Positions 1,094 through 14,440 of a DNA stretch of 14,440 nucleotides are shown here, piece by piece; position 1 is the first letter of the stretch; each line of letters begins with the position of its first letter. The stretch comes from a virus. Lineage: Duplodnaviria > Heunggongvirae > Uroviricota > Caudoviricetes. The notes below the pieces were generated by a model. The model was not told where the DNA came from, did not search any database, and saw only the letters and a program-made list of their open reading frames with translations. The translations under genes and the position numbers were made by a program. The DNA lies in IMG/VR virus record IMGVR_UViG_2939147180_000003, one strand, 5' to 3'.

Positions 1094-2071
1094 TCATCTC
1101 ATTTTCTTGTTCAACGTGGGGCTGATTTTAACTTTCCTGTCGTAAACAAGTACCTGTGATTCTGTCTTATGACCACTGAATTTTTGCTTATCCCTGCCAG
1201 ATCCTTCATAGTCTGAGATCCCTTTAGCCTTTAGATCATGGAAGGTGCAATCAAGTGGCCTACCAAGTTCTTCAGAAGCCGCGTTTCTCGCTTTTCTCCA
1301 TGCTTCATTAAATCCCTTGTATGAATAACGCTCACCATACATTGTCCTGATAACAGGGCCATCCTGTCCCCATTCCCTGCAAATATCCACAGCCGCACTA
1401 AGACGCTCAGTCCAGGCTTTGATCTGTTTAATACCAGTTTTACCTTGCTGTATGAAAATTCCTTTATCAAGAATCTGATTCCAGTTCATTTTAAGAACAT
1501 CAGATACCCTTGCAGCGCAAAGATACGCAATTTCCATCGCGGCTTTAACTGCAGGTGTCGCATGAGTGAAGATAGCTATGTACTCTTCATCAGTTATGTA
1601 GCGGTCGCGCTGGGGTTTAGGAAACTTATCGACACCAACACACGGATTACCTGGTACATAACCACGCTGATAACCCCAGCGGTATACACGAGACATTGAA
1701 CTATGCTCGTGATTAGCCTGAACACGGCTTCTTTTACCACGTGCATCCATGTAGCGTCGGACGTGTTCTGGTTTAATGGCCTTTGCTTCTGCATCGCCGA
1801 AAACCGCTAACAAGTATTTTTCATGTGCCAGGTAATCTTTTTGTGTCCTGGGGGCAAGGTCTGCATAGTCAGCACTATTTAAAAATTTTTTCCACAATTG
1901 TTGAAAGGTGAGTAGTTTTTTTCGACCTTCAACGACTTTCTCGTAAGCTAACCAAACCTCCGCTTTAGAAGCGTTTGCTGGGGCTAGATTCTCGGTAGTA
2001 CCTCCTGGCTTCCAGTAGTAACCGGAAGGGCGGAAAAACACACCCTTCGGCATCCACTCATTCAGCATCAA
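1094..2071 (-). CDS. int: Phage integrase, tyrosine recombinase (lambda Int family)
   Basis: ORF 1094..2071 (-); first codon at 2071 is TTG, first ATG at 2068. Alignable to lambda Int catalytic region: CAARVSD (Arg I), QQGKTGIK (Lys), TFHDLKAKG (HxLR box but with Lys), SGHKTESQVLVYDRK (His, Tyr nucleophile). Adjacent to the tRNA 3' end. Confidence 0.9.
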   Translation of the reverse strand: MMLNEWMPKGVFFRPSGYYWKPGGTTENLAPANASKAEVWLAYEKVVEGRKKLLTFQQLWKKFLNSADYADLAPRTQKDYLAHEKYLLAVFGDAEAKAIKPEHVRRYMDARGKRSRVQANHEHSSMSRVYRWGYQRGYVPGNPCVGVDKFPKPQRDRYITDEEYIAIFTHATPAVKAAMEIAYLCAARVSDVLKMNWNQILDKGIFIQQGKTGIKQIKAWTERLSAAVDICREWGQDGPVIRTMYGERYSYKGFNEAWRKARNAASEELGRPLDCTFHDLKAKGISDYEGSGRDKQKFSGHKTESQVLVYDRKVKISPTLNKKMR

Positions 2072-2216
2072 TCACATCTTGGGATACAGACGCTTGGATA
2101 ATATCTGCTTCGCTATAGTCGCCCCGCATAACCAGAAAACGAGCCTCATCGGAGCAGAGGTAATCAACTGCCCCATCAAATTTCCCCTTGCTGGTTGGTT
2201 TGGTTACGTTGCTCAT
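2058..2216 (-). CDS. Small acidic hypothetical protein (52 aa), translationally coupled upstream of int
   Basis: MSNVTKPTSKGKFDGAVDYLCSDEARFLVMRGDYSEADIIQASVSQDVIDAE; ATG at 2216 overlaps the stop of the preceding ORF (ATGA), and its 3' end overlaps the int start. Occupies the usual excisionase position but is acidic, unlike typical basic Xis proteins. Confidence 0.4.
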   Translation of the reverse strand: MSNVTKPTSKGKFDGAVDYLCSDEARFLVMRGDYSEADIIQASVSQDVIDAE

Positions 2217-2347
2217 GCTGTCCACCATTCAATAAACATGCAGATACCAACGGTTACTACGGCAATCAGCACCCAGCAGATCACATCTAACAGGGCGGCG
2301 AGCCGACGCAGGGTGTATTTGCTGTAATTCTCAGGTTCAAAATTCAT
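2213..2347 (-). CDS. Small hydrophobic protein (44 aa, one predicted TM helix)
   Basis: MNFEPENYSKYTLRRLAALLDVICWVLIAVVTVGICMFIEWWTA; start ATG (2347) overlaps the ParB-like stop (ATGA), stop overlaps the next start (ATGA). Below the 60-aa cutoff of the ORF track; supported only by the coupling geometry. Confidence 0.4.
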   Translation of the reverse strand: MNFEPENYSKYTLRRLAALLDVICWVLIAVVTVGICMFIEWWTA

Positions 2348-3129
2348 TGCGCCTCCCCAAGCACCCAGCGCAGAGCCTCGGCATATTCGCCACTGGCATC
2401 TTCGAGTGCTTTTGTAATTTCTTTGCGGGTTTTCAGGCGCGGCTTTGCATCACCGAGGATCTGACGCTGACGCCGAGCTTTTTCATGGCCCGTGGTGCCG
2501 GCGGTCGCTGTCTCGATCTGCTTGACCTTCTCCCGTTGCTCTTCGGGTTTAAGCGATGCCAACTGACGCGCCTGGGTAACAGTGACCGTTCCGGACTCCA
2601 CTGCATCGCGAACAGCTTGGGTGGCATCCAGCAGTGACAGAGTTGCGCGTACGGTCTGGACACTCACGCCAAACATCAGCGCTAAATCATCCTCATCGTG
2701 CCCGCGCTCCAGCGCATCAGCCATTTTCTTTGCTCGGCCTAGCGGCGTATCTGCCTGGCGGATTTCGTTAGCACTTACCATCGCCTGCGCCATGCGAATG
2801 GCAGAGCCACGTTTAGGGACTCCCGGAACCAGTAACGGTTCTTTGCCCAATTTTGACAGACGCTTATTGGCTTCCAGTGTATGGCGCACACGCTGGCGAC
2901 CATCAACCACACAAGACAGCCCTGTTTCCGGGTCTTTCCAGACGATAATCGGCTCAAGAACGCCCTGGTCCATGATGTTCAGCACCATTGCCTCGCTGAT
3001 AGGCAGGTGGATACGCTCATCGTAAAGCGGGTGCGTTTTGTCGGTAACCAGGTGCAGTTTTTCAGGTTCAAACGCTAAAACGTTCGTTTTGCCACTCGCG
3101 CCATATACCAGCTTTGAGTCTTTAGCCAT
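2344..3129 (-). CDS. ParB/Spo0J-family protein (ParB N-terminal nuclease-like domain plus HTH)
   Basis: 261 aa; ParB-box-like motif VVDGRQRVRH, followed by an HTH-like segment LALMFGVSVQTVRATLSLL and a charged C-terminal region; ATG 3129 overlaps the upstream stop (ATGA). No parA partner in the window. Confidence 0.75.
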   Translation of the reverse strand: MAKDSKLVYGASGKTNVLAFEPEKLHLVTDKTHPLYDERIHLPISEAMVLNIMDQGVLEPIIVWKDPETGLSCVVDGRQRVRHTLEANKRLSKLGKEPLLVPGVPKRGSAIRMAQAMVSANEIRQADTPLGRAKKMADALERGHDEDDLALMFGVSVQTVRATLSLLDATQAVRDAVESGTVTVTQARQLASLKPEEQREKVKQIETATAGTTGHEKARRQRQILGDAKPRLKTRKEITKALEDASGEYAEALRWVLGEAQ

Positions 3130-3428
3130 CAGAGAGCCTCCACGTTACGGAAGCTGGTGGGGCAAATTGCCTTCAAATCGCGCATAGCCTCTAGAACATG
3201 CATATTTGTGCGATTCTTGGTGTGTCGCTCGGTCAGGCGATCACACTCTTTCGCCCATGATTTGACCTCTGCAAGAAGGGCGTCACGTTCGGTGCGCGTC
3301 TGGCGCAGAGCTACATTCGAAACATCGAGGACGGTAGCCAGTTCCTTGATGATTGCTGCCTGTTCTGGTGGCATAGTTTTGGCTATTTCGTACGCCTGTT
3401 TAATCAGTTGTTTTGCTGTCTTAGCCAT
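3129..3428 (-). CDS. Hypothetical protein (99 aa), first gene of the leftward early operon
   Basis: Track ORF 3129..3479 trimmed to ATG at 3428 (MAKTAKQLIKQ...) preceded by GGAGA 7 nt upstream; stop overlaps the ParB-like start. Confidence 0.6.
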   Translation of the reverse strand: MAKTAKQLIKQAYEIAKTMPPEQAAIIKELATVLDVSNVALRQTRTERDALLAEVKSWAKECDRLTERHTKNRTNMHVLEAMRDLKAICPTSFRNVEAL

Positions 3429-3724
3429 CTTTTGTTCTCCATCTGACGCTCTGCAACGCGTAAATTTAGGGTGCAGCAACCCAACCCATGAGAATGGGTG
3501 AATAGCTGGTTAAAATTTCTTGCTGATGGGGGACCGCCACTGCAATGGCGGTACGTTAGTTCTCCACACAACACAGAAGAGCACCTGCGGCCGCAAATCC
3601 GCTCGGGCGGATTGTGTTAGGGCACGTCACTCGGTGGTGCTCTGATGTCTTTTGTAAAAGGGCGAACCAGAAACAATGGGGAAACTGGTGCCGCCAAGAT
3701 GACATAGTCCATCAGACTCACTTG

Positions 3725-3768
3725 ATGTTAGGTTATGCCTAATGTCATGTCAATAGGCTTAGCCTAAT
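3725..3768 (-). promoter_or_regulatory. PL-like leftward promoter overlapped by two operator palindromes (OL-like)
   Basis: On the minus strand TTGACA (3753..3748), 17-nt spacer, TAACAT (3730..3725). Operator-like 17-mers GTTAGGT-TAT-GCCTAAT (3727-3743) and AATAGGC-TTA-GCCTAAT (3752-3768), centres 25 bp apart, related to the perfect palindrome at 5776-5792. Confidence 0.5.
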
Positions 3769-3782
3769 GTTGGTCGGCGGTC

Positions 3783-3806
3783 AAAAAAAATCCCGCATAA
3801 GCGGGA
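3783..3806 (-). terminator. Intrinsic terminator-like hairpin (reads as hairpin plus U-tract on the minus strand)
   Basis: Stem TCCCGC (3791-3796) / GCGGGA (3801-3806), loop ATAA, flanked by A8 at 3783-3790 (T8 on the minus strand). Sits between the IS5 left end and the PL-like promoter. Confidence 0.5.
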
Positions 3807-3826
3807 TTTGTGTGAAATAAAGCTAG

Positions 3827-5021
<1,195 letters not shown>

Positions 5022-5247
5022 CTAACATTTTTAACATGTTCAATGTGATTTTTAAGACGTACTTTGAAGTTTTCCATGCATCCTCCATGCAAAGTGAAAA
5101 CCTGCTGTTAAATCAAAGCAAGTCACAATCCCGGATAGGCTTCATACAAGCCAATCCCCCACAGGGATTGAGTTATGCAAGCGAATCAATCTCAGAGCTT
5201 TTAACATGTATGGAGCTTAGAGATATTGTCCGTTAGACCATATAAGC

Positions 5248-5724
5248 TTAAGCTCTGGCTTTCGTTTGTTTTTTTCCATCTTCCTCCTGCTCTGCCCATC
5301 TCCTTATCTTCATCTCTAATGAGTCTAAATATGCTTTAGCATCGCTATCTACCCAGCCAGGTATACGCTGTCCTTGCTCTAAGAGGACAAAATCAATGAT
5401 AGCCTTTTTTTCTCTCGAAGCCTTATTATAGAGCTCGTCAATAGAACCATTTTTAACTATGGGATCTGTTGCGGGCTCACATGTATCAGTTAGCGGGTAT
5501 CCCTTTAGTCCCCAGTGCTCGGGGCCCACAACATCAGAAAAGTAGTTCCAAAGCTCTGGTAGCTTCTCTTTCGATATGGAGCCTTTATTGATCCAGTCAT
5601 GGATTGATGGGGGTTTTATTTTGAAATGACGTGCGATTTCCGCCTTACTCTTGGCAGAACCTATTGAAAGCTTCTTGTCTATGGCCTGCTCGATCGCTCG
5701 GCCCAATTCTTTACCACTAAGCAT
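5248..5724 (-). CDS. Prophage repressor, HTH (Cro/C1-type) with non-peptidase C-terminal domain (RacR-like architecture)
   Basis: 158 aa; N-terminal HTH (SKAEIARHFKIKPPSIHDWINKG); no GDSM / Ser-Lys S24 motifs in the C-terminal half; divergent from a cro-like gene across an operator cluster; GAGGA upstream of ATG 5724. Confidence 0.7.
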   Translation of the reverse strand: MLSGKELGRAIEQAIDKKLSIGSAKSKAEIARHFKIKPPSIHDWINKGSISKEKLPELWNYFSDVVGPEHWGLKGYPLTDTCEPATDPIVKNGSIDELYNKASREKKAIIDFVLLEQGQRIPGWVDSDAKAYLDSLEMKIRRWAEQEEDGKKQTKARA

Positions 5725-5793
5725 TGCCTAATAATCCTCATAACCTATAGCTTAGGCAATTCCTATTGGTTGTTTATTAGGCTTAGCCTAATA
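5716..5793. promoter_or_regulatory. Divergent immunity control region: three operator-like palindromes and a PR-like promoter
   Basis: Perfect 7-3-7 palindrome ATTAGGC-TTA-GCCTAAT at 5776-5792; degenerate copies at about 5751-5767 (CTTAGGC-AAT-TCCTATT) and 5716-5732 (ACTAAGC-ATT-GCCTAAT, overlapping the repressor start). Plus-strand TTGGTT (5765-5770), 17 nt, TAATAT (5788-5793). Confidence 0.55.
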
Positions 5794-5825
5794 TCTGCTT
5801 GTGTGGAAATCATAGGAATCCGTTT

Positions 5826-6089
5826 ATGAGAAGTAGCCTTGAAGCAATCAGTGAAGCCTGCCGCATTGTTGGGGGACAAGCCGCTTTGTCAAGGAATCTA
5901 GGCATCTCATCACCAACAGTGAATCAATGGACAACGGGCATTAGGCAAATACCTGCGGAACGATGTCCTGCGATTGAGAAAGCTACTGGTGGTGCTGTCA
6001 CCTGCGAAGAGCTTCGTCCTGACATTGACTGGGCCTATTTAAGAGGTGCAGCAATGCGAAAGCTTAATGTCACTGCATCAAATTTGTAA
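5826..6089 (+). CDS. Cro/YdaS-like HTH regulator
   Basis: Track ORF 5799..6089 trimmed to ATG 5826 with AGGAA upstream; MRSSLEAISEACRIVGGQAALSRNLGISSPTVNQWTTGIRQIPAERCPAIEKATGG... resembles the YdaS/Cro family of the Rac prophage from memory. Confidence 0.75.
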   Translation: MRSSLEAISEACRIVGGQAALSRNLGISSPTVNQWTTGIRQIPAERCPAIEKATGGAVTCEELRPDIDWAYLRGAAMRKLNVTASNL

Positions 6090-6117
6090 CTACCACCCGA
6101 GTTTGAAAGGAGTAGGT

Positions 6118-6570
6118 ATGAACCTCAAAGAAGTCGTGAAATCTATGTGCAAAGCATATCCAGGTGGGCGCGAAGCAATGGCTGGCGCACTGGGAATGAC
6201 GGTGACGCAGTTTAACAACAACCTTTACGAGAAAAACGGCTGTCGTTTCTTCGAAGTCAGCGAACTGGAAGCGATGGAGGACATCTCGAATACATCTCAC
6301 CTGGCTGAATATTTTGCCCGCCGTCGTGGTGCTCTGCTGGTGGATGTTCCGCACCTGGAAGAACTGGACCGCGTGGACTTGTTTAGCCGGGCAATGCGTA
6401 CCTCTGCCGCCAGGGGGCAGGTTGATCAGATTATCGAACAGGCGCTTGAAGATGGCGTTATTGAAAGGCACGAGGCCGAAGAAATCATGGTGCATCACCG
6501 CCGTCACCTGGCAGCTCGTGAAGAAGAGATTGCCGCAATCATCACGCTTTTTTCACGCAAAAAGAAGTGA
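6118..6570 (+). CDS. YdaT/CII-like regulatory protein
   Basis: Track ORF 6046..6570 trimmed to ATG 6118 preceded by AAGGAG (gaaaggagtaggtATG); position immediately after cro-like gene as in Rac racR-ydaS-ydaT. Family assignment is by position and recalled similarity only. Confidence 0.55.
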   Translation: MNLKEVVKSMCKAYPGGREAMAGALGMTVTQFNNNLYEKNGCRFFEVSELEAMEDISNTSHLAEYFARRRGALLVDVPHLEELDRVDLFSRAMRTSAARGQVDQIIEQALEDGVIERHEAEEIMVHHRRHLAAREEEIAAIITLFSRKKK

Positions 6571-6597
6571 CGCCAGCGAGTTGCAGCTCCTGGCGTC

Positions 6598-7437
6598 GTG
6601 GCGTGTCGTTATCAGTGGAGATTACTAACGCATGAACAGTTTATCAACACAATACCGCAGGTCGCAACTTGTAGCGCGGCCAGTTCCTGGTGGAGCAGGG
6701 CCGGTGCAGTTCGTGTAGAGCCATTCGTTGGTGGTGGGTCGGTATTCCTGAACAGCGAAAAGCACGCAGATTACCTGCTGGCGGACGTTAACCCGGACCT
6801 GATTAATCTGTATCAGATGTTAGCGGTCGTGCCGGATGAAGTGGAATTGAAGGCCCGCTGGATGTTCGAGCACATGCGGTCACCAGAGCGCTATGAGCTG
6901 ATCCGTTCCGAGTTCAACTCTCAGACGCTGGATGCTACTGAACGCGCAGCTGCATTCCTGTATCTCAACCGGCATTGCTTCAATGGTCTGATGCGCTACA
7001 ACCAGGCGAACAAGTTCAATGTGGGCTGGGGAGGCTACAAGGCTCCGTATTACCCGATGGATGAGATGAAAGCCTTCGCGGCTATGGCGCATAACTGCGT
7101 ATTCATGACGGCTGATTACCGCCGGACAATCAGCCTGGCCGGGAAAGGGGATGTGGTTTACTGCGATCCGCCTTACGAACCGATGCCGGGAACAACCGGA
7201 TTCACCGCCTACGCCGCTGGTGGTTTTAACTGGGAGAACCAGGTAGACCTGGCGAAGCAATGCGTATCAGCCTTTCACCGTGGGGCTCGGGTAGTGATTT
7301 CTAACTCATCTGCACCGAAGGTTCTCGACCTGTACCGGGAGCATGGTTTTAACCTGCAATTCATCAACGCGCGCCGTTCGATCTCCTGCAAAAGCAGTAC
7401 GCGGGAAGTCGCAAAAGACGTTGTAGCGATCCTTTAA
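6598..7437 (+). CDS. dam: DNA adenine (N6) methyltransferase, Dam family
   Basis: VEPFVGGGSVF (SAM motif I) and CDPPYEP (DPPY catalytic motif); alignable along its length to E. coli Dam from memory. Only in-frame start is GTG at 6598 with no good SD; same frame as the upstream gene, separated by a single TGA. Confidence 0.8.
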   Translation: MACRYQWRLLTHEQFINTIPQVATCSAASSWWSRAGAVRVEPFVGGGSVFLNSEKHADYLLADVNPDLINLYQMLAVVPDEVELKARWMFEHMRSPERYELIRSEFNSQTLDATERAAAFLYLNRHCFNGLMRYNQANKFNVGWGGYKAPYYPMDEMKAFAAMAHNCVFMTADYRRTISLAGKGDVVYCDPPYEPMPGTTGFTAYAAGGFNWENQVDLAKQCVSAFHRGARVVISNSSAPKVLDLYREHGFNLQFINARRSISCKSSTREVAKDVVAIL

Positions 7438-7446
7438 GGGGGCTAA

Positions 7447-8289
7447 ATGAAACTGACTTTACCATTTCCACCGAGCGTAAATAGTTACTGGCGCGCCCCG
7501 AGCAAGGGACCGCTGAAAGGCAGGCATCTGGTAAGCGAGACAGGGCGCAAGTTCCAGCAGGCAGCGAGAGCGGCGATTATTGAGCAACTGCGGGCCGTTC
7601 CCCGGCCATCCTCAGATCTGGCCGAGGTTCACATAAACGTTGTTGAGGGCGCGGGGCTTGAGCTTGATCCTGATGATGATTCACAGGTTCTTAAAGCGAT
7701 TGGTGGCGGTCGCCTGCTTAATATTGTCACCTTTACTAAGTCAGGGACTTACACTCCAACTAAAGGGACGAAAAGAGTGCGGGTGAAAGTTTGGGGAGCG
7801 GGGGGAGGTGGCCAGAATGCTCCAGTTAGTGTGGGCGCATCTGGAGGTTGTGCTGGTGGATTTTCGGAAGGGTTATTTAATATTTCTGATAACGAAACTA
7901 TATCTGTGACGATAGGTACTGGTGGCAGTGCTGTTGCTGCTGGTGTCTCGTCTAAAGGCGGGAATGGTGGTGATACAAGGTTCGGGAGTTTAATCTCAGC
8001 TACTGGAGGGAGTGGTGGCGGGGCTACAGTTCCTGCTGGAGGTATCGGAAGTGGCGGGAACATTTTAAATATTACTGGCGGAATATCTCAAGGTGGTCTG
8101 TATTATGGTTCTGATGCTTTTATTGGCGGGGCTGGAGGATCTGCATTTTCATCAACGGGTGGCAATGGCCACTTCGGTAGTTCTGGCGATGATGGCGGTT
8201 TCCCCGGCTCAGGTGGTGCCGGGGGGAATGGTAACTATTCATCAGGAAAAGGAGCGAATGGTTTAGTTTACCTTGAAGAGTTTTCCTGA
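7447..8289 (+). CDS. Chimeric ORF: RusA-like Holliday-junction resolvase N-terminal region fused to a glycine-rich tail-fibre-type C-terminal domain
   Basis: aa 1-96 RusA-like (LPFPPSVNSYWR, DPDDDSQV, GGGRLLNIVTF); aa 111-280 Gly-rich repeats (VKVWGAGGGG ... GANGLVYLEEFS). Synonymous codon usage shifts from G/C-ending to A/T-ending near nt 7720-7780. ATG 7447 with AAGGGGG upstream. Confidence 0.65.
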   Translation: MKLTLPFPPSVNSYWRAPSKGPLKGRHLVSETGRKFQQAARAAIIEQLRAVPRPSSDLAEVHINVVEGAGLELDPDDDSQVLKAIGGGRLLNIVTFTKSGTYTPTKGTKRVRVKVWGAGGGGQNAPVSVGASGGCAGGFSEGLFNISDNETISVTIGTGGSAVAAGVSSKGGNGGDTRFGSLISATGGSGGGATVPAGGIGSGGNILNITGGISQGGLYYGSDAFIGGAGGSAFSSTGGNGHFGSSGDDGGFPGSGGAGGNGNYSSGKGANGLVYLEEFS

Positions 8290-9359
8290 TTATTTTTGCT
8301 TTGAGCGTCCGCCCTTATTTTTGCTCTAATTTTAATTAGTGGCTTGTCTATTAATATTACACAAACGATCCCAAGTGCAATTGATATTGGGTAGCCTAAT
8401 AAAAAGATGGATAAGCCACGATTTTCACCACCAATAGCAAGCCATGCTAGAAATCCACCAAAATATTGACAAAGAAAAATTGGATAGGCCAGGTCACCAA
8501 ACCACTTGAGTATTTTCTCAAGATGTATGTTTGTCTTTATTTTTAATAATACCAGGGTTGTAAACAATGCTATTACATTATTGGTGTAGTAAAGTATTAT
8601 GTTGTACTGACCTAATGGATTAATTGTATATAAATGCCAATTGGTAATAAAAATCCCGATGCAAATAAATGTTATTAAAAAAGCTTTGTGTGGAGAAAGA
8701 TACATAGCTTTGAACTTTCTATGGGCAAAATAACCCAGAGAACCCATGCTAAAAGGAAGTGTTGCAGCAAGGAATGGGAAATACGCCATATCAAAAGAAT
8801 GGTGTACTACATATACGTAAGCATGATAAAGCAGTGAAAGCAGAATCGACGTAATGGCTGTAAATTTATTTCGGGCTATGAAAAGCCACAATAAAAAATA
8901 ACATGTTATCTCAACACCCACTGACCATGATGATGTGACTATTCTGAATCTATTACCATCAATAGCAAAGTGATAAATGGATGAAAAGGCACCGAATGGA
9001 TTTGCTACAGCATTATCAGAAAGGAAAGCCCAGGGGAAGATTAAGAGGTTTCCTAATAAATCTCCAGGTAAGAAATTGCCTGTCCAGTTTGAGTGGAATT
9101 CCTTTGCGGATGGAATTAATTTTATAATAAGAAAGCCCATGACGAGAAAAAATATATATGCCGGGAATAACCTCAGTATTCTATTTTTCCAAAACATAGA
9201 GAAGTTGAACTTGTATGTTTCATGCAAAATGTATGTTATTAAAAAACCACTAATAACATAGAAGCAATTCACTGCAAAGTTGCCAAGTGCAGGTATGCGA
9301 GCCGTTAAGTGAAAAGCAATGACGCACGATGCCAAAAAAAACCTTATTAGGCCAAGCAT
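8268..9359 (-). CDS. Acyltransferase family 3 integral membrane protein (O-antigen / polysaccharide O-acetyltransferase-like)
   Basis: 363 aa, about 10 hydrophobic segments, AT-rich coding sequence; resembles phage Oac/OafA-type acyltransferases. Start ATG 9359 overlaps the stop of the upstream small ORF; 3' end overlaps the convergent 7447..8289 ORF by 22 bp. Confidence 0.8.
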   Translation of the reverse strand: MLGLIRFFLASCVIAFHLTARIPALGNFAVNCFYVISGFLITYILHETYKFNFSMFWKNRILRLFPAYIFFLVMGFLIIKLIPSAKEFHSNWTGNFLPGDLLGNLLIFPWAFLSDNAVANPFGAFSSIYHFAIDGNRFRIVTSSWSVGVEITCYFLLWLFIARNKFTAITSILLSLLYHAYVYVVHHSFDMAYFPFLAATLPFSMGSLGYFAHRKFKAMYLSPHKAFLITFICIGIFITNWHLYTINPLGQYNIILYYTNNVIALFTTLVLLKIKTNIHLEKILKWFGDLAYPIFLCQYFGGFLAWLAIGGENRGLSIFLLGYPISIALGIVCVILIDKPLIKIRAKIRADAQSKNNQENSSR

Positions 9360-9622
9360 TATTTTATCTCCGCGCCAATATCGCGCATTTTATTTATTAC
9401 ATTGTTAAGTTGCTCATCAGACAGAACAAGCTGAGCTGCAATATAAAACAGTATGTGTCTTGACATTACCCTGGGGCTCTCTCCGCCAGTGTATTTCCGC
9501 CATTGGCTATCGCTGGCTACACCTGCGAGCCCTGCCATTTGGTTTCCGGAGTAATTTAGTGCGGATTTCAGTCTGGCTAAATCTTCCTGCGTTGGAGGGG
9601 TGTATTTATTTATTAAAATCAT
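9359..9622 (-). CDS. Small XRE-like HTH protein upstream of the acyltransferase
   Basis: Track ORF 9359..9646 trimmed to ATG 9622; segment YSGNQMAGLAGVASDSQWRKYTGGESPRVMS fits an HTH_3-type pattern; stop/start overlap with the acyltransferase gene (TAATG). Confidence 0.45.
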   Translation of the reverse strand: MILINKYTPPTQEDLARLKSALNYSGNQMAGLAGVASDSQWRKYTGGESPRVMSRHILFYIAAQLVLSDEQLNNVINKMRDIGAEIK

Positions 9623-9723
9623 TCTCTTATTTAACCGTTTAAACACGTAAGGCGATGTTAGCCCTGAAGGGGCGGGGCGTCAATCTTAATTGCTTCATTG
9701 AAAAGATGAAGACAGGAACAGGT

Positions 9724-11718
9724 ATGGACAAAAGATATAATACCGGCAATCCAAGACCTTCAAATAGCATGAAGGATCTGAATGATAACGCCCTGGCGTA
9801 CGATGATTTCCTGAACAGCGAAAGCGATACTTTTATAGATCGTTTTGGTAACGCCCAGGATACGATAATTGGGGCTACTAAAAAAATGGCAGCTGCTACC
9901 GACGCTGTTATTGATGAAGCCCGCCAAAACCTGATCCCTCTCAGCCGGCAGTACATGACGCTGGCGGCGGCGCAGGCGGATATTGCGAATATTCCGGCAG
10001 GTTCAACAACCTATGTCCGCAGTCAGGACGGAAGCTCTCTGGCCGATGAGTATATCAACCTCGCTGGAACGCTGCAGCCAACCGGACGGCGGATGGTTCG
10101 TGACGACTACGCATACCAGGTATCGCCAGACAGCGTGACCCTGGCAGCATATGATCCGGAGACTTCCCGCGTGGCTCCATTTTTAAATACAAGCGGCAGA
10201 TTAATTCAAATCGGTCCTGACGGAAAATATTACGAACTTTTAACCCAACAAGAATCCGAACTCTATGCGCTGGGCCGGGAGGGTTCTATACCGCAGTTTA
10301 TTGGCGGTGAAAAAGTGTGGCGGATGACGGTTGATTCAACCACAAACCAGATCGTTGAAGCTTATACGGTTGGTGGGAAGCACTGGATTTACTCAGACGG
10401 TGGCCTGGTAGCTGTTAATAACGGAAATGGCGGTGGTGGTGGCGACGATGATGCCAACCAGCTCCCTGAGTATGGACTTCATTTGTCAGGGTCTACTGTG
10501 TACCCCTACTCAGAGACAGTGCCTGTATGTTTTATCTTTGTGACTGCTGGGCAATCCAACGCTCGAGGATATTGTCCTGACGCCGATCAAACCATTGTCG
10601 CAGCAACGCCGATATATCCTGATAACGCTTTCATGCTCAGCGGCGGGGTTAGGCGTACAGGGACACGCAGCACTACTCTGGTGCCACTGGTTGAGGCAGT
10701 AAGTGGGACAGATAAAGAAACGGCCGCAAGCGGCCTCGCGAACACCTTCATTCGCGATATGGCTGCAGCTACCGGAATCATGCCGCGCACGCTATCAATC
10801 GTATGTGCGCAGTCTGGTCAGGCTTACGAGTACCAGAAACGGGGTAACCAGGTATATCAGTATCTGCTCGATTCAATCGAAGACTGCGTAACGGCCTGTA
10901 AAGCACGCGGCTGGCTGCCGATTGTTCTCTGCGTTGACTGGATGCAGGGAGAGTCCGACGAGGACTGGTCAGGATTACGAGAAGGAATGTATGAATCACG
11001 GATGAGGCAGTACCAGAGACAAATCACCAGCGACATCATCGCAAGAACGGGTCAAAACGAACCGCCGATTATCGCCATTACCCAGCTGGGGTATGTCAAT
11101 GACGGGCATGGTGCATTTACAGGCCAGTACGCGCGACTGGCGTCGACGCGATTGCACGGAAAAGAGCAATTCAGGCTGGTCAATAGTTTGTACCAGTACG
11201 ATTTTATTTCAGACGGTCTGCACTTGACGTGTGCGGGCCAGAACCGGCGCGGAGCAGCTGTGGCGAGAGCGCTTCTCCAGGAGTGGTTTACGAGCGGCTG
11301 GTCAGGGATGGTTCCGACCAGTTTCGTGTGGAACTCACCCACGCAGATACAAATCAATGTCCCAGCGTATACGAACCTGGTGCTGGACACGACTACGATC
11401 AACACCTCCGGTCTGGCCAATTACGGCTTTAGCTACACGGATGAGACTGGTGCTCCACCTGCTATATCGAGCATCGCGATCAGCTCGGACGGCAAGGGCG
11501 TGCTGATTAACCTGGCGACCGCCCCCTCTGGACGTTTTGGGCGCGTTTCCTATGCGACAGCAGAAAACCCACTTCAGAGCGGCGCATCTGTAAAACCTTC
11601 CGGGCGGACTCTTGGTGCAAGAGGGTGTGTTCGATCTTCCGCTGGAATCATATGGGTGTATGACACATCCGTGACTCTTTACGACTGGCTCCCCGCTTTT
11701 CGTATTAACGTTTTCTGA
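9724..11718 (+). CDS. Tail-fibre/tailspike-like protein with central SGNH-type (sialate O-acetylesterase-like) hydrolase domain
   Basis: Track ORF 9655..11718; likely start ATG 9724 (AGGAACAGGT upstream). GQSN block at aa 276-279 (nt 10549-10560, FIFVTAGQSNARG) and DGLH block at aa 497-500 (nt 11212-11223); Gly-rich linker NNGNGGGGGDDD before the esterase domain. Tail-fibre role inferred from context. Confidence 0.7.
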   Translation: MDKRYNTGNPRPSNSMKDLNDNALAYDDFLNSESDTFIDRFGNAQDTIIGATKKMAAATDAVIDEARQNLIPLSRQYMTLAAAQADIANIPAGSTTYVRSQDGSSLADEYINLAGTLQPTGRRMVRDDYAYQVSPDSVTLAAYDPETSRVAPFLNTSGRLIQIGPDGKYYELLTQQESELYALGREGSIPQFIGGEKVWRMTVDSTTNQIVEAYTVGGKHWIYSDGGLVAVNNGNGGGGGDDDANQLPEYGLHLSGSTVYPYSETVPVCFIFVTAGQSNARGYCPDADQTIVAATPIYPDNAFMLSGGVRRTGTRSTTLVPLVEAVSGTDKETAASGLANTFIRDMAAATGIMPRTLSIVCAQSGQAYEYQKRGNQVYQYLLDSIEDCVTACKARGWLPIVLCVDWMQGESDEDWSGLREGMYESRMRQYQRQITSDIIARTGQNEPPIIAITQLGYVNDGHGAFTGQYARLASTRLHGKEQFRLVNSLYQYDFISDGLHLTCAGQNRRGAAVARALLQEWFTSGWSGMVPTSFVWNSPTQIQINVPAYTNLVLDTTTINTSGLANYGFSYTDETGAPPAISSIAISSDGKGVLINLATAPSGRFGRVSYATAENPLQSGASVKPSGRTLGARGCVRSSAGIIWVYDTSVTLYDWLPAFRINVF

Positions 11719-11727
11719 GGATAAAAA

Positions 11728-12528
11728 ATGAGACTGATTTACACACTAACTGGACTGAATAACCCCTTACTCCCTGTGTACTCACAAACAGCGGCAGAGA
11801 AAGCGATCTCAGAACTATCCCCATCAGTATGGACACCAGTGAAGACAGAGTTTCTAAAAATGGGGTCTGGTGCAAAAGTAGTAGCTATCTCTAACCGATT
11901 AGATGGCGGACTTTTCAAGTCACTGGAGACCCTCGAGCCATCCACAAAGCTGAATGGTTCTGTTTTGCAGGGGCTTAATTTCTCCGGTGCATCCGGCATG
12001 GCTGGTGATACGGCGGTGGTTATGGACGCAAACATCAATACTTTTGCATTCATCTATCAGCTGCCAGGTGGGGCGCTTCCGGCTACGCCACAGGACAGAG
12101 CGGTTATCGCAACCCAGGAAAGCACACCTCATGGCGTCGGCATTCGTACAACGTCAGCAGGTTCATTCCCGATTTTTCTGAATGGAGGGATCGAGGCCGA
12201 TCTGGCATTTACTCCTAACAATATAGGGCAATCTTTATTCTGCGCTGTAGTTATGTGCTCTAACAAGGCTGCTGGATCCTATGCAATTGCATACCAGCGG
12301 TCAGATCAGTCTGCAGTGACCAGCCGACAAGTGACGGGCTATACAATCCCAGCGTATAGCCCGTCTCAAAAAATGAGTATTGGCGGAGCAGGCAATGGTT
12401 CAGTGTCTCCGTTAACATCCGTTTTGTCAGAATGTTTGGTTTTCCCCGGCAAATATGCATATGGGACCAGCACACTGGATGTCATCCTGGCATATCTGAT
12501 GGAGAGGATTGGAAAAATCACGGCCTAG
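11728..12528 (+). CDS. Hypothetical protein (266 aa) co-transcribed with the esterase tail-fibre gene
   Basis: GAGGA 7 nt upstream of ATG 11728, 10 bp after the upstream stop; no family motif recognised. Position is analogous to tail-fibre assembly or distal fibre genes. Confidence 0.55.
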   Translation: MRLIYTLTGLNNPLLPVYSQTAAEKAISELSPSVWTPVKTEFLKMGSGAKVVAISNRLDGGLFKSLETLEPSTKLNGSVLQGLNFSGASGMAGDTAVVMDANINTFAFIYQLPGGALPATPQDRAVIATQESTPHGVGIRTTSAGSFPIFLNGGIEADLAFTPNNIGQSLFCAVVMCSNKAAGSYAIAYQRSDQSAVTSRQVTGYTIPAYSPSQKMSIGGAGNGSVSPLTSVLSECLVFPGKYAYGTSTLDVILAYLMERIGKITA

Positions 12529-12721
12529 AATTTGCCGAATGCATCCGAGTCGGTCCGCAGCGATGGAGCAGGAGAGAGTCGGCGGCCGCCGCCGGATAAT
12601 GACTGAAGAAGTGGTGGAGCGGTGCCGCAGAATGCTGGAGAACGGCGCTACCCGGCAGCAGGTGGCTGATGTGACAGGCGTGGACGTGAAAACAATCTAC
12701 AAGTACCTCCCGGCGACTTGA
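12509..12721 (+). pseudogene. Remnant of a Hin/Gin/Pin-type serine DNA invertase (C-terminal HTH fragment only)
   Basis: AAMEQERVGGRRRIMTEEVVERCRRMLENGATRQQVADVTGVDVKTIYKYLPAT resembles the invertase C-terminus (GRIGGRRPKLT ... RQQ.A...GV..T.Y+Y.PA) with an apparent internal deletion; the resolvase catalytic domain is absent. Confidence 0.5.
12662..12717 (+). repeat. Direct repeat copy 1 (invertase 3' end, about 55 bp)
   Basis: TGGCTGATGTGACAGGCGTGGACGTGAAAACAATCTACAAGTACCTCCC; related copies at 13241-13292 and 13449-13505. Confidence 0.6.
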
Positions 12722-12798
12722 AGGCAAAGATTTCACTACTTTTCCTGATATGTTACGTTTGGCTTAATCAATTCATTCAGCTTTGAAAACAGTTTGGT

Positions 12799-13221
12799 TT
12801 GTTCGTGAACGGTAAGAAAACAATAAGTTTTGAGCAATTTTTAACTATTAACAGCAATCTTGTTTCCATCTCAGATACATGGGCTGACTTGTGGGCGTTA
12901 ATTTTTCACACGGGTTTAAGCGCTGGAAGGCTGCTGAGTATTCGATATGATGATATTGATGGTGACTTGATACTGATACGAAAACAGGGTCACCTGAAGG
13001 AGCTACGTGTTAAATCAACCCCTCCAGTGGAGGGGATCATTGCTCGTAGAAGAGAACGCTATCCAGAAGATGTTTTTTTATTTCAGAGCCATTCTAACCG
13101 TGTGAAGTACCAATGCCGGCCGGTCACTATAATTGCTTTCAACGCCGCTTTACGTCGCGCCGCTAGATCATTACCAGACGTTAACGTAAGCAGTAGTAGC
13201 GCGAGAAACATACCGGACTAA
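12799..13221 (+). pseudogene. Tyrosine-recombinase-like fragment (FimB/FimE-like core, truncated at both ends)
   Basis: No ATG anywhere in frame (TTG/GTG only); ALIFHTGLSAGRLLSIRYDDIDGDLILIRKQG resembles the box-I region of small tyrosine recombinases; the HxLRH and Tyr-containing C-terminal region are missing. Followed in frame after one stop by a copy of the invertase-3' repeat. Confidence 0.35.
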
Positions 13222-13240
13222 CCGCCTGTCCAGTCGCGTG

Positions 13241-13292
13241 TGGCCGATGTGACAGGCGTGGGGGTGAAGACTATTTACAAATATTTGCCAGT
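13241..13292 (+). repeat. Direct repeat copy 2 (invertase 3' end)
   Basis: TGGCCGATGTGACAGGCGTGGGGGTGAAGACTATTTACAAATATTTGCC; high identity to copy 1 with scattered substitutions; encodes VADVTGVGVKTIYKYLP in the frame of the upstream recombinase-like ORF. Confidence 0.6.
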
Positions 13293-13304
13293 ACAATACG
13301 GCGA

Positions 13305-13338
13305 TAAAAACCCCCTTGAGCAGGCACACTCAAGGGGA
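13305..13338. terminator. Strong hairpin, terminator-like on the minus strand
   Basis: Perfect 9-bp stem CCCCTTGAG (13313-13321) / CTCAAGGGG (13330-13338), 8-nt loop; A-run 13307-13311 upstream gives a T-run after the hairpin on the minus strand; no U-tract on the plus strand. Confidence 0.3.
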
Positions 13339-13448
13339 AAATACTACATAACATCATTGCTGTGTGCGTCTTTGCGCTCGTCTATCTTCCAAGAATATGC
13401 CTAAAGCTTCCAGATATTTCTGGTCTGAGCTGTTACATCATGGAGTAG

Positions 13449-13505
13449 GTGCCGATGTGATAGGTTAAGAGCGAAGATGATCTGTAAGTACCTTCCGACG
13501 TCGAG
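13449..13505 (+). repeat. Direct repeat copy 3 (degenerate)
   Basis: GTGCCGATGTGATAGGTTAAGAGCGAAGATGATCTGTAAGTACCTTCCGACG; clearly lower identity than copy 2, with in-frame stops. Confidence 0.45.
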
Positions 13506-13841
13506 GGGCAATGACCATGAATTTGGGTCTATACCATCCCAATTCATATATTCTTTGTAAGTCTATGAAATATAGAGCAAAGTATTCTGTTCGAAATGAA
13601 CCATATGGAATAGCCAAAGGCTAAAATGCCCAGAGTAAAAACAACAATCAGCAAGTCCGTCTGTGACATCTTATATCCATTTTGCAGTAGCAGGTTTTGA
13701 GAAAAGATAGTTCATAGTTGGCACATAGACAACATAATCACTAAGTGAAACCAATATCAGAGGCTAAAAGGTGACTGGTTTCCTCCTCAGTGTTCCTGAT
13801 TGATAGCTGGAACCTGTATTGATCAGATCTCTTAATGAATC

Positions 13842-13861
13842 TACTGTATATAAAAACAGTA
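13842..13861. promoter_or_regulatory. LexA box (SOS operator)
   Basis: TACTGTATATAAAAACAGTA: CTGT-N8-ACAG with AT-rich spacer, full match to the LexA consensus and, as I recall, identical to the E. coli umuDC operator. Lies 18 nt upstream of ATG 13880, just before GGGAGGTG. Confidence 0.8.
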
Positions 13862-13879
13862 TTTTCGGGAGGTGAAGTT

Positions 13880-14038
13880 ATGCCGCGAAACTCAGATATC
13901 GAAATAGCCTGGCGTCAGGCAATTGTCATTGAGCCTAATGGCCGTCGCACCGTGACAACGTCCGGTTTTATCCGGGAACTCGCAAAAGTTAACTGGATAT
14001 GGTCACCGCGCCAGGCTAACCAGTGGATAGAGCACTGA
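13880..14038 (+). CDS. Small protein (52 aa) immediately downstream of the LexA box
   Basis: Track ORF 13835..14038 trimmed to ATG 13880 with GGGAGGTG 5 nt upstream; MPRNSDIEIAWRQAIVIEPNGRRTVTTSGFIRELAKVNWIWSPRQANQWIEH; no family recognised. Confidence 0.5.
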   Translation: MPRNSDIEIAWRQAIVIEPNGRRTVTTSGFIRELAKVNWIWSPRQANQWIEH

Positions 14039-14047
14039 CATTCCGGG

Positions 14048-14440
14048 ATGTCTCAACGCAGGAAGGCGATGAGCTCACGTTCCAGTTATACAACCCAAAC
14101 GGAGGGCTATAACGTGGGATTTCCGTCGCCAGCTGCTGACTATGTTGAACGGCGTCTGACCGTTGATTCACTCTGCGGTACCGGCCCCAATACTCGGATA
14201 GTACAAACAGAAACCGGCTATGCCGTAGTGGATTGCTTCGTAAAACCAAAGCAAGGAGATACCGTTTTAATTCAATACGGCGGCGGCACTGATTTTGCAA
14301 AAATTATGGGCCGGGCATTTATTACACGAGACGGTGAAGCGTTGGAAGGTGAGGCCCTGGATGATGTTACAGTTGTCGGGGTAGTGACATTCGTTATCAA
14401 TCGGATAGGGAAGGATGATGATGATTATCCAGTAATATGA
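14048..14440 (+). CDS. UmuD-like (peptidase S24 fold) protein, apparently lacking the Ser nucleophile motif
   Basis: GFPSPAADYVERR at aa 24-36 matches the UmuD region around the Cys24-Gly25 cleavage site; C-terminal DDVTVVGVVTFVINRI resembles the UmuD C-terminal strand; TGYAV occupies the place of SGDSM. Alternative start ATG 14069. Stop TGA is the last codon of the window and overlaps an ATG (ATATGA). Confidence 0.65.
   Translation: MSQRRKAMSSRSSYTTQTEGYNVGFPSPAADYVERRLTVDSLCGTGPNTRIVQTETGYAVVDCFVKPKQGDTVLIQYGGGTDFAKIMGRAFITRDGEALEGEALDDVTVVGVVTFVINRIGKDDDDYPVI

Follow-up and report, generated by a model that had tools for sequence, protein, structure and literature searches.

Organization of the locus

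The DNA analyzed here is a 14,440-nucleotide stretch (hereafter, the window) from the IMG/VR virus record IMGVR_UViG_2939147180_000003, classified within the Caudoviricetes. It carries on its minus strand a two-gene operon, formed by an 87-amino-acid (aa) XRE-like gene with a putative helix-turn-helix (HTH) product (positions 9359 to 9622) and a 363-aa membrane acyltransferase of the acyltransferase family 3 (AT3)-only type (8268 to 9359), and, divergently on the plus strand, a gene for a 664-aa long tail fiber with a carbohydrate esterase domain (9724 to 11718). On its other side the operon converges with the 3′ part of a gene for a glycine-rich short tail fiber (7635 to 8289, plus strand), and the long fiber is followed by a gene for a 266-aa partner protein (11728 to 12528, plus strand) that travels with it. 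A preliminary description of the sequence had suggested that the acyltransferase, expressed by the lysogen, and the fiber, carried by the virion, act on the same surface polysaccharide. The comparative data do not bear out this pairing and point instead to two separate, individually known phage surface modules, probably stranded side by side in a defective prophage.

The acyltransferase operon and the short fiber

The acyltransferase matched the Pfam family Acyl_transf_3 (PF01757) over aa 4 to 336 (profile positions 6 to 323 of 326; E = 2e-15, 57.1 bits against a cutoff of 31) and PHROG 3333, "O-acetyltransferase" (5.8e-22). It keeps the AT3 motifs R6-X10-H17, FYVISG, N59-R60-I-L-R63-L-F-P66, WSVGVE (E150), and GDLAYP, which are invariant in 17 homologs down to 28% identity; of the motifs known to be essential in AT3 proteins, R/K-X10-H lies in transmembrane helix 1 and RXXR in the first cytoplasmic loop (PMC9558356). 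A simple hydropathy scan gave six hydrophobic segments at a strict threshold, the AT3 expectation being about 10 transmembrane helices. With a G+C content of 35.2% (33% at third codon positions), compared to 43% for the XRE-like gene and 50 to 53% for the neighboring fiber genes, the acyltransferase gene is compositionally foreign. It was intact in all eight variant copies translated, with a pN/pS ratio of 0.13 against the most divergent copy, a value that rests on only 16 substitutions. PDB sequence searches with the acyltransferase returned nothing useful, and neither NCBIfam nor PADLOC gave meaningful matches for any of the genes.

The open reading frame (ORF) that converges with the acyltransferase (7447 to 8289) is a chimera in which the first 62 codons of a RusA gene are joined in frame, at about position 7634, to the last 218 aa of the glycine-rich short fiber. 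The latter part (7635 to 8289) matches Pfam Gly_rich_2 (2.5e-9) and PHROG 863 (tail; 2.8e-44), and its product is 99% identical to aa 44 to 261 of WP_001310746, the intact 261-aa protein of complete prophages. Between this ORF and the acyltransferase there is a 22-bp convergent overlap (8268 to 8289), which had been cited, along with the AT-rich composition, as a sign of a separately acquired cassette. The overlap is present; however, complete prophages, in which the glycine-rich gene is intact (261 aa), show the same 22-bp overlap with the acyltransferase, so that it is an original feature of the module that the chimera did not create.

When the E. coli and K. pneumoniae versions of the module are compared, the segment from 7775 to 9162, comprising the glycine-rich C-terminal part and most of the acyltransferase, is seen to be swapped as one block. 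Its flanks, 7634 to 7774 and 9163 to 10043, keep 88 to 96% identity, the second of them spanning the first ∼200 nucleotides of the acyltransferase, the small gene, and the start of the long fiber.

The esterase tail fiber and its partner

The long fiber starts at an ATG at position 9724, inside the ORF 9655 to 11718, and matches PHROG 4201, "tail fiber" (1.3e-66). Its N-terminal part (9724 to 10095) comprises aa 1 to ∼67, the predicted virion-attachment adaptor specific to an E. coli myovirus with a Mu-type baseplate, and a shared linker, aa ∼68 to 124 (RQNLIPLSRQYMTL...), the apparent site where recombination joins different C termini. Many tail-fiber PHROGs align to aa 40 to 150 only, and several fiber PHROGs fall on aa 23 to 150.

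Next comes a SASA/SGNH carbohydrate acetyl-esterase domain (aa 271 to 519; 10534 to 11280), identified by its motifs and by a full-length match to Pfam SASA (PF03629; 1.8e-11, 44.6 bits against a cutoff of 24.8, profile positions 4 to 226 of 226). The esterase blocks are GQSN (aa 276 to 279, with S278), QGESD (aa 408 to 412), and DGLH (aa 497 to 500, with H500), and S278, E410, D412, and H500 are invariant in 15 homologs down to 23% identity. The remainder of the protein (aa 520 to 664 plus the stop codon; 11281 to 11718) is a C-terminal domain predicted to be rich in β-strands in an AlphaFold2 (AF2) model of aa 230 to 664 (predicted local distance difference test [pLDDT] score, 75.5). A Foldseek search with this model gave as best match the tailspike of phage Pan3 (9vyh, E = 3.2e-21), to which the esterase and C-terminal domains align jointly, followed by the acetylesterase XAC1771 (7kmm), 2apj, 1zmb, and NanS (3pt5); the C-terminal domain is kept with the esterase domain in all homologs. 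A PDB sequence search (phmmer) with the fiber recovered no esterase or tailspike chain, only spurious AAC(3) hits at an E value of ∼0.1. Neither the fiber nor the 266-aa partner has a hydrophobic segment, and hence neither has a signal peptide.

The domain searches suggested in the preliminary description thus matched both families above cutoff. Its reading of the locus as a family 3 membrane acyltransferase in an AT-rich operon (8268 to 9622), divergent to a fiber with GQSN and DGLH esterase blocks, holds.

An ORF for the 266-aa partner is found 3′ of the esterase fiber in E. coli HS, in K. pneumoniae prophages, in phage ST16-OXA48phi5.2, and in the lytic phage AV124, and DNA homology continues through the gene both in K. 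pneumoniae (91.8%) and in ST16-OXA48phi5.2 (78.4%). Its Klebsiella carriers include siphovirus as well as myovirus prophages. The partner has no Pfam or PHROG match. Each of the alternative fiber types described below has its own, very divergent ORF in the partner position (249 to 460 aa), one of them with a Laminin_G_3/ConA-like match (7.5e-5). The 266-aa partner is probably a lectin-like distal or accessory component of the fiber.

The acyltransferase and the esterase are not coinherited

The native setting of the operon is seen in intact E. coli prophages (strains ECCTRSRTH03 and 2015-01-2097), in which portal, capsid, sheath, tube, tape measure, and Mu-type baseplate genes (GP46, baseplate J, and Gp48/YmfQ) are followed by the 261-aa glycine-rich protein, the antisense acyltransferase with its small gene, the long fiber, a further ORF, a UmuD-like S24 peptidase, and the attachment site. 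This arrangement recurs in Serratia phage vB_SspM_BZS1. In the complete prophages the long fiber lies at the end of the tail/baseplate operon, 3′ of baseplate J and Gp48, as expected of a tail fiber, and both there and in vB_SspM_BZS1 the acyltransferase has the position of an Oac-like accessory gene of a temperate phage, i.e., antisense in the fiber region and of low G+C content. The gene order identifies the interval as the receptor-binding end of a temperate myovirus, with a putative two-gene moron placed antisense between two fiber genes.

Of 5,426 complete E. coli genomes surveyed, 31 contained the acyltransferase cassette, at 98.5 to 100% nucleotide identity and intact in every case, and in 31/31 it was accompanied by the glycine-rich gene. 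A comparator with an empty site, i.e., with the glycine-rich gene directly before the long fiber, was not found among the complete E. coli genomes, all 31 loci having the cassette. The E. coli loci are homologous from window position 7634 to about 10090 (fiber residue ∼120), at 97.5 to 99.3% identity, and then diverge. Beyond this point, 15 of the 31 have the SASA esterase fiber, these copies being ∼100% identical, all at the mtfA site, and four of them copies of strain HS. Another eight encode SGNH/GDSL esterase fibers of two lengths, a 591-aa form with a Pfam Lipase_GDSL_2 match (5.7e-10) and a 626-aa form assigned by annotation only. The others carry a "TolB-like" fiber (three genomes; annotation only, with no Pfam match), a β-helix fiber (two genomes; Pfam Beta_helix, 5.1e-8), a "CotH kinase family" fiber (one genome; annotation), or fibers with no recognizable domain (two genomes, one fiber having no Pfam match and the other being annotated only as hypothetical). 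The same acyltransferase is hence joined to at least seven different fiber C-terminal types in E. coli.

Conversely, the esterase module occurs in other company. Fiber residues ∼68 to 664 and the 266-aa partner are 89 to 99% identical to very common K. pneumoniae prophage proteins; the K. pneumoniae esterase protein was indexed in 156 data blocks, from which 24 contigs representing 5 distinct places were read. In a K. pneumoniae lambda-like siphovirus prophage that shares window positions 9925 to 12600 at 91.8% identity, the esterase fiber and its partner follow the tape measure and gpJ genes. In the induced Klebsiella phage ST16-OXA48phi5.2 they follow the baseplate, the protein before the fiber being unrelated, and in the lytic Vequintavirinae coliphage AV124 a 77%-identical esterase copy lies among the fiber genes. 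No acyltransferase adjoins the esterase module in the Klebsiella prophages read, in ST16-OXA48phi5.2, or in AV124, and an 82%-identical esterase fiber is encoded in another two E. coli genomes that lack the cassette. As for the acyltransferase slot in other genera, homologs of 43 to 53% identity occupy it, in K. pneumoniae beside an 806- to 876-aa fiber with an ArabFuran-type partner and in Pantoea beside a Gp53-like fiber and its chaperone, with no second fiber.

Since the acyltransferase is found with at least seven fiber types and the esterase module is found without the acyltransferase, the two genes are not coinherited, and the comparison lends no support to the proposed pairing on one polysaccharide. 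The homologies delineate what appear to be a constant unit, made up of the short fiber, the acyltransferase, the small gene, and the fiber adaptor, and a second unit consisting of the esterase and its 266-aa partner. The breakpoints in the fiber, at ∼10090 with respect to the E. coli loci and ∼9925 with respect to Klebsiella, leave an overlap (9925 to 10090) that corresponds to the linker RQNLIPLSRQYMTL. Judging by these breakpoints, the window fiber is a chimera of the two units, joined within the shared linker.

The small XRE-like gene and the divergent intergenic region

The 87-aa gene starts at an ATG at 9622, and its TAA overlaps the ATG of the acyltransferase (TAATG), so that the two genes are predicted to be translationally coupled. 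A mechanically called ORF (9359 to 9646, minus strand) extends it to 95 aa from a GTG, and relatives conserve the 87-aa form. They form a family of more than 300 clusters across the Enterobacterales, at 66 to 75% identity, named "XRE family transcriptional regulator" by NCBI. The small gene that had been described as an XRE-like regulator is thus present and coupled to the acyltransferase, with weak profile support for an HTH: HTH_31 matched 16 of 20 relatives with a best E value of 0.0018, below the Pfam cutoff, and matches to Xre-like-HTH, in 7 of 20, were likewise weak. The small-protein profile gave nonsignificant matches in PDB to the HTH of AcrIF24/Aca3 (E = 0.24 to 0.42), hhalign against 434 Cro gave a nonsignificant probability of 5%, and a PDB sequence search yielded nothing useful. 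An AF2 model has five helices at low confidence (pLDDT, 53), too poor for a fold search, and the protein has no hydrophobic segment and hence no signal peptide. A pattern, (W/Y)-x-PPT...L...G...RKYT-G, is common to the small protein and the anti-CRISPR-associated AcrIF24/Aca3 HTH of the nonsignificant match.

In a K. pneumoniae prophage a 99%-identical copy of the XRE-like gene precedes an acyltransferase that is only 49% identical; by this comparison the small gene is far better conserved than its cargo. In other genera, the genes that follow it are envelope-glycan genes of various kinds: in Salmonella, one for a hexapeptide-repeat acetyltransferase, which converges with an HtrL/YibB gene; a WaaZ-like 3-deoxy-d-manno-oct-2-ulosonic acid (Kdo) transferase in Citrobacter; and an AT3 protein in Serratia. 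In lambdoid K. oxytoca prophages no cargo follows the XRE-like gene, its neighbors being the Q antiterminator and holin genes. This pattern suggests a transferable lead gene shared by a family of surface-modification morons.

The intergenic region between the operon and the long fiber (9623 to 9723) contains one sigma-70-like match on the minus strand (9683 to 9655, TTGACG-17-TAACAT). The promoter scan of the region as a whole showed no enrichment over shuffled sequences, and no direct or inverted repeats that could serve as operators were found in it.

Chromosomal setting: a prophage remnant in an O9 strain

The window is matched at 100% identity by several E. coli strains, among them the w264 chromosome (NZ_CP095088), in which the full element measures ∼13.8 kb and has a tRNA-Ser at one side and a tRNA fragment at the other. 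The setting is that of a decayed prophage within an E. coli O9 chromosome. To the left, the element is flanked by mtfA and the tRNA-Ser (892 to 981), and its genes run in the order integrase (1094 to 2071, minus strand), a ParB-like gene, the insertion sequence ISKpn26 (3973 to 4953), RacR-like repressor, Cro-like, and YmfL-like genes, Dam methylase (6598 to 7437), and the first 62 codons of the RusA Holliday junction resolvase (7447 to 7634, plus strand; PHROG 34, RusA-like, on aa 1 to 63; annotated by NCBI as a RusA pseudogene lacking the C terminus). From there on the sequence is that of the receptor-binding end of another phage: position 7634 is where homology to E. coli myovirus prophages starts and where the left arm is fused in frame to their fiber end, and the RusA remnant is the left side of a deletion/recombination junction. 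According to the w264 annotation, no terminase, capsid, tail, or baseplate genes are present in the whole ∼13.8-kb element; as the element has no head, tail, or baseplate genes either in the window or in the genome identical to it, the fiber does not belong to a virion here. The fiber therefore has no virion to join, and only the moron could still act. E. coli HS, a strain reported to have two complete prophages and two remnants (preprint 10.64898/2026.05.19.726188), has at the same site a longer yet likewise incomplete version, with terminase-to-baseplate genes there instead.

The left arm (1094 to 7634, integrase to truncated rusA) is Klebsiella phage-like; its Dam-RusA DNA is 98 to 99% identical to that of many Klebsiella phages, and it carries ISKpn26. 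To the right of the fiber partner (12557 to 13221 and 14048 to 14440) are an HTH_7 (invertase-type) fragment, a 140-aa integrase-like fragment (PHROG 19751), and a UmuD-like gene. K. pneumoniae prophages have a similar HTH_7 ORF, a 140-aa ORF, and small terminal ORFs 3′ of the esterase fiber, and it may be the entire right end, and not the fiber C terminus alone, that comes from the Klebsiella prophage gene pool.

Association of the cassette with O9 hosts

The O9 polymannan is identical to the Klebsiella O3 antigen. An O9-family cluster was present in all 24 of the cassette carriers checked, out of 31 in total, compared to 284 of the 5,426 genomes (5.2%) with the O9 genes wbdA and the adjacent methyltransferase. 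Thirteen of the 24 were among the best 60 of these 284 matches, nine more were recognized from the region next to his, and two are named O9:H10; the count leaves aside W21 and six other carriers. The 24 have the prophage at three integration sites (mtfA, yecD-aspS, and yciI), with at least seven fiber types and several K loci, which together argue against a single clone. The association may nevertheless stem from lineage effects. The two genomes with the 82%-identical esterase fiber and no cassette are also O9.

E. coli HS has the O9 polymannan cluster (wbdC, wbdA, methyltransferase, wzt, and wzm) next to his plus a Klebsiella-type group 1 capsule locus, as the HS preprint likewise states. Strain w264, also O9, has a Klebsiella-type group 1 K locus of a different type, with a pyruvyl transferase and its own 317-aa acyltransferase (positions 13181 to 14134 of the extracted region L045), to which the prophage acyltransferase has no detectable similarity; the HS K locus has no annotated acyltransferase. 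The idea that the SASA fiber follows one K type was rejected, since 14 genomes have the K-specific genes of HS and no SASA carrier other than the HS copies is among them. A separate observation concerns strain Ec1117, whose region L049 (26883 to 46001) has, besides a colanic acid locus, an O30-family wzx/wzy cluster in which wzx is frameshifted and also an O9-family ABC transporter cluster, and which may be a case of O-antigen replacement. A literature search retrieved no report of O-acetylation of the O9/O3 mannan, and we know of none.

Interpretation and alternative explanations

Taken together, the data are best explained, with a probability that we put at about 0.7, by two separate, individually known phage surface modules stranded side by side in a defective prophage. 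At the level of sequence, the identities of the genes, the intactness of the catalytic motifs, the modular exchange, and the lack of virion genes are established; for substrates, expression, and biological effect in this host, we infer the following from the families concerned. In the first module, the XRE-like gene and the AT3-only acyltransferase, antisense between the glycine-rich short fiber and the long fiber, would have a promoter of their own from which they are transcribed in the lysogen. A surface glycan would then receive an acyl, probably acetyl, group that the membrane enzyme takes from cytoplasmic acyl coenzyme A and passes across the inner membrane. Acylation of this sort would alter antigenicity, change the serotype, and block the adsorption of some phages, a case of classical lysogenic conversion, as with Oac of Sf6 (PMC9558356). 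In the second module, the first ∼67 residues of the fiber would dock to the baseplate, the rest having been imported from the Klebsiella prophage pool by recombination at the conserved linker, and on a virion the SASA/SGNH fiber would attach to an O-acetylated capsule or O-antigen and strip its acetyl groups, giving the phage access to the outer membrane.

Several observations weigh against this reading or soften it. Promoter support for the operon amounts to a single consensus match. The Ser/Asp/His arrangement of the esterase is present in the sequence; however, D497 is not invariant, being Asn in 2 of the 15 homologs, and the structural check is partial, as the nine residues before H500, including D497, have pLDDT values of <50 in the AF2 model. 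The acyltransferase is near-identical across hosts with different K loci, so that a capsule type-specific target seems unlikely. Finally, an esterase fiber of some kind, of at least three sequence types, is present in 23 of the 31 E. coli loci, and there may be a loose functional affinity between the acyltransferase and esterase fibers, with a shared substrate as a possibility. SGNH hydrolases, on the other hand, have been reported to be the enzymatic domain found most often in receptor-binding proteins of K. pneumoniae prophages (PMC13123978), and for this reason the 23/31 figure may be a mere base rate.

A matched antagonistic pair, in which the lysogen's acyltransferase acetylates the very position that the esterase of the virion fiber recognizes and removes, would account for the adjacent and divergent placement of the genes as well as for the esterase fibers just mentioned, and an interplay of prophage acetyltransferases and esterase fibers has already been discussed, and raised as a possibility for Klebsiella (PMC13123978). 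We nevertheless regard such a pair as decidedly unlikely. The same acyltransferase is joined to β-helix, TolB-like, CotH-like, and unrecognized fibers, AT3 homologs occupy the slot with nonesterase fibers or none, and the esterase module does without an adjoining acyltransferase in every Klebsiella context examined and in a lytic phage; moreover, acetylation of the phage's own receptor would create, not remove, adsorption sites on lysogens, and the prophage here cannot make virions. Far more improbable is a split O-acetyltransferase, with the SGNH "fiber" serving as the periplasmic transferase of the AT3-only protein in the manner of the fused OafA/OatA or of PatA/PatB. The AT3 review does raise the question of an SGNH partner for AT3-only proteins, with WecH given as able to function together with PatB (PMC9558356), and an SGNH-fold gene adjoins an AT3-only gene here; but that gene is transcribed divergently from the acyltransferase, its product lacks any signal peptide or hydrophobic segment, has an N terminus matched by many tail-fiber PHROGs and a phage tailspike as best structural match, and is found without AT3 in a lytic phage and in Klebsiella prophages.

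The acyltransferase could instead be tied to the O9 polymannan, or to another feature of O9 strains, and to the constant short fiber, modifying that receptor for superinfection exclusion while the long fiber follows the Klebsiella-like K antigen. This would fit the O9-family cluster in all checkable carriers, their spread over integration sites, fiber types, and differing K loci, the invariable linkage to the glycine-rich gene, and the replacement of its C terminus and the acyltransferase body as one block between E. coli and Klebsiella. We hold it to be doubtful, since the association may reflect host lineage or phage host range rather than the substrate of the enzyme, the block replacement may simply reflect adjacency, and the literature search returned no O-acetylated O9/O3 mannan. 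It is also possible, if on balance somewhat unlikely, that neither gene has a current function in this host, the two being mere leftovers of a prophage that decayed recently. The missing virion genes, the RusA/fiber fusion, and the insertion sequence all speak of decay, and, as the 15 SASA-type copies are ∼100% identical, intactness may mean only recency. However, the moron operon could work independently of all other phage genes, and the acyltransferase is intact in 31/31 genomes, with the low pN/pS already noted, itself based on few substitutions.

A broader scenario, which we consider more doubtful still than the O9-directed acyltransferase alone, would have the XRE-acyltransferase cassette and the glycine-rich short fiber mark a temperate myovirus lineage shared by Klebsiella and E. 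coli and confined in the latter to O9 hosts. The acyltransferase would add an undescribed acyl group to the O9/O3 mannan, or to another O9-linked glycan, for superinfection exclusion, the long fibers would follow the Klebsiella-type K antigen, and the XRE-like gene would head a moron family that invariably carries an enzyme modifying surface glycans (AT3, hexapeptide acetyltransferase with HtrL, or WaaZ-like Kdo transferase). To our knowledge, an antisense, XRE-led glycan-modifier cassette with exchangeable cargo, the linkage of the acyltransferase to the glycine-rich fiber, and the restriction of E. coli carriers to O9 have not been described before; we offer these three observations as leads, not results. 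Each component otherwise belongs to a known kind, phage AT3 acetyltransferases near receptor-binding genes being classical.

Under the preferred reading of two independent modules, the locus is an example of how the receptor-binding end of a temperate phage is built from exchangeable parts across genera, here an E. coli myovirus adaptor and a Klebsiella esterase module. Were both enzymes to act on one acetyl group, it would provide a compact model of a phage that writes and erases its own receptor, which the comparative data make unlikely. The lead that one prophage lineage and its acyltransferase may track the O9/O3 antigen would be relevant to serotyping, to the prediction of phage host range, and to the choice of vaccine targets in Klebsiella as well as in E. 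coli strains with group 1 capsules.

Comparison with known systems

The esterase domain resembles NanS and the SASA family (PF03629; PDB 3pt5) in its full-length profile match, in the blocks GQSN, QGE(S)D, and DxxH, and in the structural match of the model to 3pt5 (Foldseek E = 7.7e-7). NanS, in contrast, is periplasmic and acts on free 9-O-acetyl sialic acid. Nothing in the present data points to sialic acid as the substrate, so that the name given to the fiber in RefSeq, "sialate O-acetylesterase," denotes no more than family membership. The best structural match, that of the predicted model to the Pan3 tailspike (9vyh), extends over the esterase and C-terminal domains with a template modeling score of 0.59; the sequence identity, however, is 18%, and Pan3 is a cyanobacterial podovirus.

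Among temperate phages, epsilon15 of Salmonella combines, as described in PMC9558356 and a preprint, a tailspike esterase domain with lysogen-encoded control of O-antigen acetylation. It differs from the window in that, in those accounts, lysogenic conversion abolishes O-acetylation, a proposed effect of inhibiting the host AT3 enzyme with none being encoded by the phage, and in that the tailspike is chiefly a glycosidase. A receptor-binding SGNH esterase like the one proposed here is the tailspike gp63.1 of phage G7C, a virion enzyme that deacetylates the host O-antigen at adsorption (Prokhorov et al. 2017, Mol Microbiol 105:385, as cited in PMC13123978 and 10.1101/2021.06.09.447823); unlike the window element, G7C is a lytic N4-like podovirus, and no acyltransferase is involved in the system as cited there.

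For the acyltransferase, the closest parallel is Oac/OacA of Shigella phage Sf6, which is also AT3 only, of about 330 to 360 aa, carried by a temperate phage near its receptor-binding/attachment end, and endowed with R/K-X10-H and RXXR. Both motifs are essential in AT3 proteins, and Oac confers seroconversion and superinfection immunity (PMC9558356). The window gene departs from it in being preceded by a coupled XRE-like gene and in lying antisense between two myovirus fiber genes, PHROG 3333 being the sole family-level link.

The fiber, for its part, is closest to the SGNH-domain tail fibers of K. pneumoniae prophages, two of which hydrolyze p-nitrophenyl acetate and for which capsule deacetylation has been proposed (Otwinowska et al., PLoS Biol 2026, PMC13123978). 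It has the same organization, with a fiber N terminus and a C-terminal SGNH esterase, and from residue ∼68 to 664 is 89 to 99% identical to abundant K. pneumoniae proteins, whereas its N-terminal ∼67 residues derive from an E. coli myovirus with a Mu-type baseplate, its host is E. coli O9, and its gene lies in a remnant. By analogy, the window fiber is most likely a receptor-deacetylating fiber of the kind shown to be active in Klebsiella prophages.

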